Source: Octopus vulgaris
Taxonomy: Eukaryota
DNA length: 64,000 nucleotides
NCBI GenBank assembly: GCA_951406725.2
Contig: OX597817.1
Location: 130,324,001 to 130,388,000, forward strand
Reading direction: 5' to 3'
Shown here piece by piece: positions 256 to 51,776 of the stretch. Both the position numbers and the translations under genes were made by a program. The stretch's first letter is position 1, and every line of letters starts with the position of its first letter. The notes beneath the pieces are model-generated. The model saw nothing but the letters and a program-made list of their open reading frames with translations. It did no database searches and was not told the origin of the DNA.

Positions 256-775
256 TATGCAGTCTTCGAAACATATGTCGAGAATAAAGGAATTTTGTTA
301 AATCGTCGTTTGACTCCATTCTTTCATTTATTTATATATATATACATATATATACATACACACACATAGGCACTCAATCTCATTAGCAAAAGCAAACAAC
401 AACGCATCACCATACATACCACTTGCACTCTGTTACCCTCCTATTCTTAGAACTTTCCCCTTCCAACCATTTTTAAACTCTTGAACTTTTTAGAATCTTC
501 TCCATCCAACCAATTTTGACGTCACTGCTTATAACAGAATTTTTTAAAGAAACACTCATTATCACTATGGACTCCGTGTGGGCAGTCATCTAAAAGTTTT
601 TGTTCGTCATGATACTGACATAAGTTCCTTGTCTTTCCTGATGAGAAGGCGACATAATGCACCCTTTATTCCTTCGGAATTAAGAATATGCAGTCTTCGA
701 AACATTTGTCGAGAATAAAGGAATTTTGTTAAATCGTCGTTCGACTCCATTCTTTCATTTATTTATATATATATA
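256..775 (+). repeat. PLE pseudo-LTR-like direct repeat (about 430-nt period) ending in (TA)n
   Basis: atatgcagtcttcgaaacatWtgtcgagaataaaggaattttgttaaatcgtcgttYgactccattctttcatttattta occurs at ~256-335 and ~686-765. Confidence 0.85.
627..721 (+). ncRNA. Type I hammerhead ribozyme motif
   Basis: CTGATGA 638-644; stem II gaaggc/gtcttc with a long insert; GAAA 699-702; stem III catttg (palindromic catatg in the upstream partial copy); TC 709-710. Stem I is imperfect. Confidence 0.7.
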
Positions 776-46745: not shown

Positions 46746-47200
46746 TATTTCAAACCATGTGCATGTATGTATGTATGTATGTATGTATGTATGTATGTAT
46801 GTATGTATGTATGTATGTATGTATGTATGTATGTGTAGCGTATCTGATATCCTCACTGTTTGAGAGGCACATTAGGAATGATCTCGTTTGAGATTACAAC
46901 CATCTTTGGCTAGTTTGACCCTGTTGTGTCCACTACTCTGATTGGTTGGCATTCGGTAGAAAATCCGTTCGACAGCAATAATAATTCTCTAAACGAGATA
47001 TAGACAGTAACTGCTCCATAACTGATGGACGTTAGCCATCTGAATGTGGCTAGAGACAGGGCAGGGCGGTGGGGGTGACGCCATCACGGCGTCCTCTAGC
47101 CTGCAAAGAACGGATTTTCTACATCAGTAAATGTATTTACTGTGAAAATCTTTATATATATCCTGCACAGAGAGTTGTTCGTCGAGGAGCGGTGCCTGCC

Positions 47201-47243
47201 ATGCGTTGATAATAGGCAAATACCTTGAAACCTAGGTCCGTAT
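47201..47243 (+). ncRNA. Type I hammerhead ribozyme, U3-A8 core variant (unit 1)
   Basis: atgcg-TTGATAA-taggcaaatacctt-GAAA-cctagg-TC-cgtat; predicted cut after 47238. Confidence 0.72.
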
Positions 47244-47556
47244 GTGGCATCCGCTTCTTCGAGGAATGATCTCCCTTTGCAGGCTAGAGGACGCCGTGAT
47301 GGCGTCAGCCCTCCTGGTGACGTTGATGATCGCCTGGGGCTAAATGCATCAGTAACACCCCCACCGCCCTGCCCTGTCCCTAGCCACATTCAGATGGCTA
47401 ACGTCCCTTATGTTATGGAGCAGTTACTGTCTATATCTCGTTTAGAGAATTATTATTGCTGTCGAACGGATTTTCTACATCAGTAAATGTATTTACTGTG
47501 AAAATCTTTATATATATCCTGCACAGAGAGTTGTTCGTCGAGGAGCGGTGCCTGCC

Positions 47557-47599
47557 ATGCGTTGATAATAGGCAAATACCTTGAAACCTAGGTCCGTAT
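47557..47599 (+). ncRNA. Type I hammerhead ribozyme, U3-A8 core variant (unit 2)
   Basis: Identical motif 356 nt downstream; predicted cut after 47594. Confidence 0.72.
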
Positions 47600-47816
47600 G
47601 TGACATCTGCTTCTTCGGGGAATGATCTCCCTTTGCAGGCTAGAGGACGCCGTGATGGCGTCAGCCCTCCTGGTGACGTTGATGATCGCCTGGGGCTAAA
47701 TGCATCAGTAACACCCCCACCGCCCTGCCCTGTCCCTAGCCACATTCAGATGGCTAACGTCCCTTATGTTATGGACAGCAGTTACTGTCTATATCTCGTT
47801 TAGAGAATTATTATTG

Positions 47817-47855
<39 letters not shown>

Positions 47856-50941: not shown

Positions 50942-50943
50942 AG

Positions 50944-51560
50944 CAATAATAAATCTCTGAGCGAAATGTAAACAGTTGCAGCACGACATCGTGAAGTATA
51001 CTTGCCACCTAAATGTGGATGACCCATATGGGACGATGCTACTGTTATTTATAACCCCAATAAGACATCTCTAACTGGCTAACGACACACTGTTTGTGTC
51101 CGATCAGCATTTGCGAAGGGAAAGCATCGTTCGCATCTCTAGTCTTACGTGATACACACGGACCCTGGTTTCTGAGTAGTAACCCGTCATCTGCTTGTGA
51201 CAATCACCAGCTAGGAATGAGAACTGATTCCAAATGCAAAATATTATTCCAGTGACAAATTGTCGCTGGTCTCGAAAAAGGAGAAACAAGCAATAATAAA
51301 TCCCTGAGCGAGATGTATTAAGTAACAGCACGACATTGTGAAGTATATTTACCACCTAAATGTGGCTGAATCATATGGGACGATGCTACTGTTGTGTATT
51401 ACGTAAAGCTAGAGATGGGAACGAAGATTTCCCTTCGTAAATCCTAATCAGACATAGACTGTGTGTCGTTAGCCAGCAGAGGAGGAGATGCCTTCCTGGG
51501 GCCATGAACAAAAGTAGCATCGTCCCATATATTGGTCAACCACATTTAGGTGGCAAATAT
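50944..51560. repeat. Three copies of one interspersed repeat: direct, direct partial, inverted
   Basis: ccacctaaatgtgg...catatgggacgatgctact at ~51005 and ~51352; reverse complement at ~51513-51553. Confidence 0.85.
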
Positions 51561-51561
51561 A

Positions 51562-51715: not shown

Positions 51716-51776
51716 GATAAAACTCCGAGTTTCAGATGCCGAGGTGGAAATCCACGCCGCCATCTCTTCAGTTATC
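51716..51776 (-). ncRNA. Type I hammerhead ribozyme
   Basis: Minus strand reads gataa-CTGAAGA-gatggcggcgtggatttccacctcggcatct-GAAA-ctcggag-TT-ttatc. Stem I is perfect; stem II gatg/catc plus gtgg/ccac. Confidence 0.8.

Follow-up and report, generated by a model that had tools for sequence, protein, structure and literature searches.

How animal retrozymes return to the genome is an open question. Penelope-like elements (PLEs) have been proposed as their mobilizers, together with a model in which the RNA is a circle (PMC7229834, PMC4209133). The question is raised again by a locus of Octopus vulgaris, at 46956..47818 of the 64,000-nt stretch of DNA analysed here (the window), which had been predicted to hold tandem units of a viroid-like hammerhead element mobilized by PLEs. 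The parts of this copy are given below, unit position being window position minus 47105.

47108..47463, forward strand: first tandem unit of the right arm
47464..47818, forward strand: second tandem unit of the right arm, whose 3′ terminus is the fixed 'long' end (unit position 355)
46956..47077, reverse strand: outer part of the inverted (left) arm, unit positions 251-356 and 1-17
47076..47108, reverse strand: inner part of the inverted arm, unit positions 170-202
47417..47460, forward strand: 44-nt PLE-type tail of unit 1, lying between the short 3′ site at 47416 and the long one at 47460
47773-47818, forward strand: PLE-type tail of unit 2
47819..47852, no strand: (AT)n target microsatellite at the long end
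47239..47594, forward strand: predicted cut-to-cut monomer of 356 nt, a putative circular RNA

The two units of the right arm were repeated head to tail with a period of 356 nt and were 98.6% identical across 355 nt, bearing out the near-identical pair that had been claimed. They differed by three substitutions (47247/47603, 47252/47608 and 47262/47618) and by a 2-nt insertion present in unit 2 relative to unit 1. The proposed junction of the 3′ end with (AT)n was confirmed at 47819. The original prediction had drawn the tandem arrangement over the whole of 46956..47818; it held for 47108-47818, whereas 46956-47108 was found to be an inverted arm, with an internal deletion of unit positions 203-250, meeting the right arm head to head at 47108. 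The outer end of this left arm was atypical, having neither the usual short end nor (TA)n, and adjoined a neighbouring repeat broken off at 46955. A search of the right flank did not find the rest of that repeat, so the left end of the copy was likely shortened by a later deletion. The broken repeat itself (46836-46955) is the start of another repeat family with 1409 candidates, fuller copies of which carry CCAAT- and TATA-like motifs and are possibly LTRs.

The longest ATG-initiated frames in the dimer were 33 aa in the sense and 104 aa in the antisense direction. A protein-coding reading was rejected because the antisense frame was not conserved, varying from 42 to 104 aa across 7 copies, in line with the claim that the element has no credible ORF. 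A tRNA-derived SINE was also considered and rejected, as ARAGORN returned 0. The copy contained no RT or GIY-YIG open reading frame such as an autonomous PLE would have, and in being non-coding, free of LTRs and not tRNA-derived it corresponded to retrozymes. An RNA read through the copy would pair the inverted arm with a unit as a long duplex (46956-47077 with 47356-47478), and such duplexes from head-to-head copies may be a trigger of silencing. No footprint of A-to-I editing was seen in two multi-copy classes, in which A>G changes were not above T>C changes (15 vs 30 and 6 vs 9); the small single-coverage class gave 5 vs 1 (P = 0.095).

Hammerhead motifs were located in both units, at the following positions.

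47193..47249, forward strand: type I hammerhead motif 1, with core at 47206-47212 (U3-A8), stem II at 47213-47226, palindromic stem III at 47230-47237 and predicted cut after 47238
47549..47605, forward strand: type I hammerhead motif 2, with predicted cut after 47594
47162..47283, forward strand: rod extending hammerhead stem I, with compensatory changes between sister families

Both motifs comprised the core TTGATAA (at 47206 and 47562), GAAA, and GTC at the cut. Stem III was ACCTAGGT in each unit, with the palindrome ACCUAGGU, and one distal stem I pair of motif 2 was broken at 47603. A type I hammerhead per unit had been expected, with cuts at 47238 and 47594 that would release one monomer. 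This stood as to the motif and the 356-nt distance between the predicted cuts, with the qualification that the core is non-canonical: it is of the U3-A8 type, and a U-U mismatch occupies 10.1-11.1 at the base of stem II. U3-A8 and U10.1-U11.1 have both been reported as natural variants of active hammerheads (PMC3088659). Only ~95 nt precede the first hammerhead of this copy, so that it would release no monomer if the promoter lay downstream of the hammerhead. A relaxed hammerhead descriptor gave 6 matches in the window, on both strands, against 1 match in 20 shuffled windows, and descriptor searches placed the hammerhead of the unit on one strand only. An Rfam search returned nothing at the gathering or E-value level. 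Other type I motifs in the window, at 638-710 (+), 2756-2803 (−) and 51721-51771 (−), had canonical cores and a long stem II and belonged to other repeat families; the motif at 638 resembled one in L038. A head-to-head hammerhead repeat with a period of ~534 nt also lies 6 kb upstream of the window (L102; 324-393, 858-927 and 1359-1428).

When the genome was searched with the unit, 1383 first-look candidates were obtained and 40 of them scored. Exact matches numbered 182 for the hammerhead pattern and 769 for the long end joined to (AT)3, with 0 for the controls, in agreement with the prediction of a young, dispersed tandem family bearing one type I hammerhead per unit. Part of the unit was present in four organisms. 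Unit length was 353-362 nt in families A, B and C. Family B (353 nt, ~61% identical, 2545 candidates) had a canonical core, family C (362 nt, 2783 candidates) had a ~59-nt tail, and family D (2827 candidates) was old; the end pattern was common to each of them. One copy of family D lies in the window.

50942-51402, reverse strand, and 51393-51561, forward strand: old family D copy with head-to-head layout and long end

The hammerhead core of this copy was decayed; it was canonical in relatives. Subfamily A2, 84% identical to the window unit, had a U4C core with C3-G8. It is the most abundant and youngest subfamily, and its loci L273, L287, L306 and L309 held up to 8-9 identical units summed over both arms. 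A further sister family (L257-L266), with 233 exact matches to one 21-nt motif, had the branched part of the unit in common and a different rod, a U3-G8 core and a loop III of TATA. Two near-identical family B insertions 6.3 kb apart (L195 and L196, C9:75170038-75177453) were likely a local duplication, and the pair was entered as one locus in the counts.

Folding of the circularized monomer gave a z-score of −3.2 against 40 shuffles, with 66% of it paired. The unit was thus highly self-paired, as retrozymes are, and the predicted stem I rod was present in the circular fold. Circular folds of 10 natural monomers from families A, B and C had z-scores of −2.6 to −6.9 (40 shuffles each), and the antisense strand folded less stably in 10/10. 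Among the pairs of the rod and hammerhead, 12/43 were changed on both sides, a number reached by 0/500 shuffles, in an 11-row alignment of related rows where the changes came mostly via two outgroup rows. For the whole monomer, 18/96 predicted pairs were changed on both sides.

The hammerhead pairing pattern was preserved between families ~60% identical. Position 3-8 was C-G in 224 motifs, U-A in 115, U-G in 88 and other in 2, from loci that partly overlap, and so was able to pair in all but 2/429. Loop III varied by lineage and was mostly palindromic (CTAG, CATG, TATA, TCGA or CCGG), one subfamily having the non-palindromic CTGG. Besides that subfamily, weakened variants among the cores were U3-A8, U3-G8, U4C and U-U at 10.1-11.1. 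U4C reduces activity in vitro and is tolerated in a viroid (PMC3088659), and elements with degenerate cores still amplified here. A direction of core change, from U3-G8 to U3-A8 as a single repair, was considered and set aside, since several changes are required on the tree and it has a long outgroup branch.

The lowest-energy fold of the single hammerhead was inactive (−19.3 kcal/mol; the active fold as drawn had −9.0 kcal/mol). PLE hammerheads include U3-A8 cores, and a short palindromic stem III permits a dimeric fold (PMC4209133); axolotl HHR_Amex2, with the same shape of stems II and III, cleaves better as a dimer (PMC7229834). A dimeric 'double' hammerhead would likely be the form that cleaves here. 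Among Xenopus retrozyme dimers, 1 of 9 cleaved in vitro and 8/9 stayed uncleaved (bioRxiv 10.64898/2026.07.22.740005).

Size, rod-like fold and hammerhead would also suit a viroid-like agent that replicates from RNA to RNA and that a PLE enzyme copies into the genome only from time to time, and a pool of many slightly different templates would fit such an agent. The presence of the hammerhead on one strand and the weaker folding of the antisense monomers speak against it, however, and the template diversity is accounted for by hundreds of genomic source loci. The ribozymes of both polarities and the lack of a DNA stage that characterize Avsunviroidae-like agents were not found. We regard such a replicator as extremely improbable, and the viroid-like label of the original prediction, taken as RNA-to-RNA replication, gained no support.

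Insertion anatomy was analysed in 101 distinct loci picked by similarity or hammerhead pattern, a sample biased to long copies. The arms were head to head in 69 loci and in a single orientation in 31, with 1 other, and 50/69 head-to-head loci had one long and one short end. The long end was defined as unit position 349-355 and the short end as 306-311, giving two fixed 3′ ends 44 nt apart. Most outward 3′ ends fell at the two sites (149/170), and 133/149 of these adjoined (TA)n. A further sample consisted of 66 loci selected for the long end only (the first 66 of 100 listed, 6 of them in the earlier set); subfamily A2 made up 40 of the 60 newly added. An inverted arm was present in 55 of the 66 and absent in 10, with 1 too short to align. 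It ended at the short site in 48/55, on (TA)n in 47/48, and arms in this set extended to ~6 units.

Target duplications of 11, 11, 11, 10, 10 and 16 bp were found in the 6 informative loci among 70 with both ends parsed; elsewhere a duplication would be hidden in pure (TA)n. The duplication was thus 10-11 bp in 5/6 informative loci, within the >4 bp of retrozymes. At the inversion junctions of the 69 loci, an overlap of 1-9 nt was seen in 38 and of zero in 17. The two arms covered overlapping parts of the unit, which is unlike L1 twin priming.

Hallmarks of PLEs include an inverted 5′-truncated copy, an optional tail of 30-40 bp and a bias to (TA)n (PMC8557442). In vitro work places this tail between two internal sites at which the RT starts, and shows cleavage of both target strands (PMC11167929). 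The anatomy of the family agrees with the inverted arm, the optional tail, the two start sites and the two-strand cut. The match between the insertion scars and the PLE mechanism makes trans-mobilization by a PLE well supported, and the proposal of PLE mobilization is backed by the head-to-head arms, the two 3′ ends, the (TA)n and the 10-11-bp duplication. We hold with high confidence that this is a PLE-mobilized, non-autonomous hammerhead element.

The genome contained intact elements with RT and GIY-YIG domains (Pfam) and a zinc-finger-like motif of Neptune/Nematis type. Scoring covered 150 of 6136 GIY-YIG candidates, and a 781-aa open frame contained 16/148 GIY-YIG matches. The two ends of Neptune-type PLEs in this genome lay 33-38 nt from each other and on (TA)n, and the 781-aa Neptune-type element (for example at L091:1245-3587) is a candidate for the partner. 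Immediately upstream, the 781-aa elements had another open frame, of 330-400 aa (L091:2-982, L093:287-1420 and L094:2-1204), for which the one example compared with Pfam returned no match; a single frame is usual in PLEs. This autonomous family also bore a U3-A8 hammerhead-like motif ~65 nt from the 3′ end (L091:4560-4610 and relatives). Resemblance between its tail and that of the unit was weak (P = 0.006 and 0.016, in 2/12 post hoc tests) and was set aside as too weak to count as an identification of the partner.

The presence of PLE ends and of a PLE-type hammerhead is also what orphan pseudo-LTR fragments would display, if 5′-truncated from an unsampled autonomous PLE. In Xenopus, 24/57 families of retrozymes had matches among known TEs, for the most part to PLE termini (bioRxiv 10.64898/2026.07.22.740005), and the scored share of the GIY-YIG candidates leaves room for such a parent. 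However, 0/66 long-end-picked loci entered a PLE frame, their long arms running into more units instead; the one old PLE fragment encountered, in L296, stood apart and unjoined. BLAST of the unit against 60 PLE-locus stretches gave no terminal homology beyond separate insertions of sister families; the matches in L096, L117 and L049 were of this kind and were rejected as partner homology. An origin from such fragments is therefore very unlikely in our view. Likewise, the concern voiced in the original prediction, that the unit might occupy a single locus or be a piece of a longer element, was not borne out.

The nature of the template was examined through the 5′ ends of the arms and the sharing of variants among units. 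The 5′ ends lay within 5 nt of the predicted cut in 5/137 arms vs 4.2 expected, a count that leaves out 9 composite loci, the window copy among them. The corresponding figures were 3/120 arms in the end-picked set and 0/42 listed starts in family B. A cleaved linear monomer as the usual template was rejected, as 5′ ends would pile up at unit position 134 and no pile-up was seen. Arms ran through up to ~6 cut sites, and in young arrays the tandem units abutted at the cut site without visible indels.

Variants in subfamily A2 (40 loci), scored strictly in columns covered three or more times, occupied every unit of an insertion in 65 cases, a single unit in 28 and some of the units in 1. This all-or-one pattern argues against patchy gene conversion, and is the outcome expected if one monomer is copied again and again. 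Individual loci held a private variant in 6/6 units (L273), in 4/4 units over both arms (L296) and in 7/7 units over both arms (L287). The counts of private variants in all, some and one were 9, 4 and 68 in family B (27 loci, 24 eligible), and 0, 3 and 66 under the strict test in the 101-locus sample around the window-type subfamily; a looser two-copy test of the same 101 loci gave 14 shared vs 199 unshared. The pattern was thus less clear for the subfamily to which the window copy belongs. Subfamily alleles were uniform within insertions in 633 cases vs 129 mixed, many of the latter reflecting gap placement at positions 203-208. Since a mutation arises in one unit, its later presence in all units of the two arms points to passage via a monomer that was read repeatedly. 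A covalent circle would be the simplest route to this; jumping on a single linear molecule or long uniform masters could also account for it.

These last routes belong to a scheme in which a non-autonomous PLE moves via linear RNA only, the enzyme copying uncleaved multimers or jumping from the 5′ end of a cleaved monomer to the 3′ end of the same molecule, which stem I would keep nearby. On this view a weak or even dispensable hammerhead would suffice, and the RNA need not be a covalent circle. The same insertion anatomy would result. Hammerhead cleavage is dispensable for PLE insertion in vitro, where uncleaved RNA is the main substrate (PMC11167929). Arrays of six units exist, the arms are long in each of three loci with one haplotype, and long linear masters could yield some long daughters. 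The amplification of elements with degenerate cores and the strict test of the window-type subfamily, with its lack of an all-unit private variant, agree with this as well. The copying of linear multimers, however, has no means of carrying a fresh variant into all units of the two arms unless a monomer stage intervenes. Indels at the cut junctions, which template jumps should leave behind, are not visible in the young arrays, and the hammerhead pairing is retained between families ~60% identical. Transposition by linear RNA only thus seems doubtful to us.

The reading that we prefer, and consider fairly likely, is that of a non-LTR retrozyme whose predicted circular monomer is copied in trans by the reverse transcriptase of a Neptune-type PLE. 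The multimeric transcript would cleave itself, probably with two hammerheads paired in the 'double' form, and ligation of the monomer would yield a circle. The scars suggest that the target, mostly (TA)n, would be nicked on both strands 10-11 nt apart; together with the in vitro work on PLEs, they suggest that both 3′ ends would prime reverse transcription at the two fixed internal sites 44 nt apart. Variant sharing suggests that both enzymes would travel round one and the same monomer, reading across the cut site and stopping after different distances, so that each arm comes to hold <1 to ~6 identical units. As the junctions indicate, the inner ends would be joined, often over 1-9 nt of common sequence, to yield the head-to-head insert.

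A more specific version, towards which the balance tips slightly, is that hammerhead RNA circles of 353-362 nt, old and still active, hijack the Neptune-type enzyme and do not stem from present PLE termini. Each insertion would then record two reverse transcriptases that started on either strand of one staggered cut and rolled round the same circle, and the core would drift among C3-G8, U3-A8, U3-G8 and U4C while the element spreads. If true, this would give the rolling-circle model of insertion, for retrozymes and for PLE tandems, direct support from a genome.

At the level of sequence the family is a novel non-LTR retrozyme family, real, young and dispersed, with every expected feature: a 356-nt period within the range of 150-450 nt, a hammerhead in each unit and dispersal in the genome. 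A PLE route had been proposed (PMC4209133, PMC7229834), and the scars described here connect the element with the PLE mechanism. The co-occurrence of young retrozymes and intact Neptune-type frames in one genome makes this testable in the existing in vitro PLE assay. The family is invisible to Rfam and would be missed by canonical-core descriptors, so such elements are probably under-counted. We found no description of this family, or of a cephalopod retrozyme, in the literature, where supplements and Repbase/Dfam may hold some; the accessible parts of PMC8967140 and PMC10886601 contain no description of the family. The accessible text of PMC7229834 and of bioRxiv 10.64898/2026.07.22.740005 includes no analysis of insertion ends or unit sharing.

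Among known systems, the metazoan non-LTR retrozymes of PMC7229834, including axolotl Rtz_353/HHR_Amex2 and the 350-390-nt mussel repeats, are alike in unit size and in having a type I hammerhead per unit. They share the two-pair stem III with a tetraloop, the U-U at the base of stem II, the lack of ORF and LTR, a target duplication of >4 bp and a self-paired monomer. The present family differs in its head-to-head arms, two fixed 3′ ends and (TA)n, features that the accessible text of that paper does not describe, and in its U3-A8, U3-G8 or U4C cores; its circular RNA is putative. Neptune/Nematis-type PLEs (PMC8557442; PAc Poseidon, PMC11167929) likewise have an inverted arm, an optional tail, (TA)n and partial tandems, and PLE hammerheads may have a U3-A8 core (PMC4209133). 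Unlike autonomous PLEs, the unit encodes no RT or endonuclease, repeats every 356 nt and has no terminal homology to the PLEs examined. Non-autonomous elements of the Chlamys clade, for example MRC1 (PMC8557442), differ in that their 3′ end generally resembles that of the autonomous partner and in that canonical hammerheads are mostly absent from the clade. The vertebrate retrozymes of Li et al. 2026 (bioRxiv 10.64898/2026.07.22.740005) also occur alongside Neptune-type PLEs, as monomers, dimers and multimers, in a sample of 31 vertebrates, 3 insects, 1 coral and no mollusc. Their argument for PLE involvement, in the text available, is based on co-occurrence and pLTR homology, whereas ours is based on the insertion scar, pLTR homology not having been found in the PLE-locus stretches compared. 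Those authors raise unequal crossover as a means of local expansion; in the octopus family, unit sharing points instead to repeated copying of a monomer.
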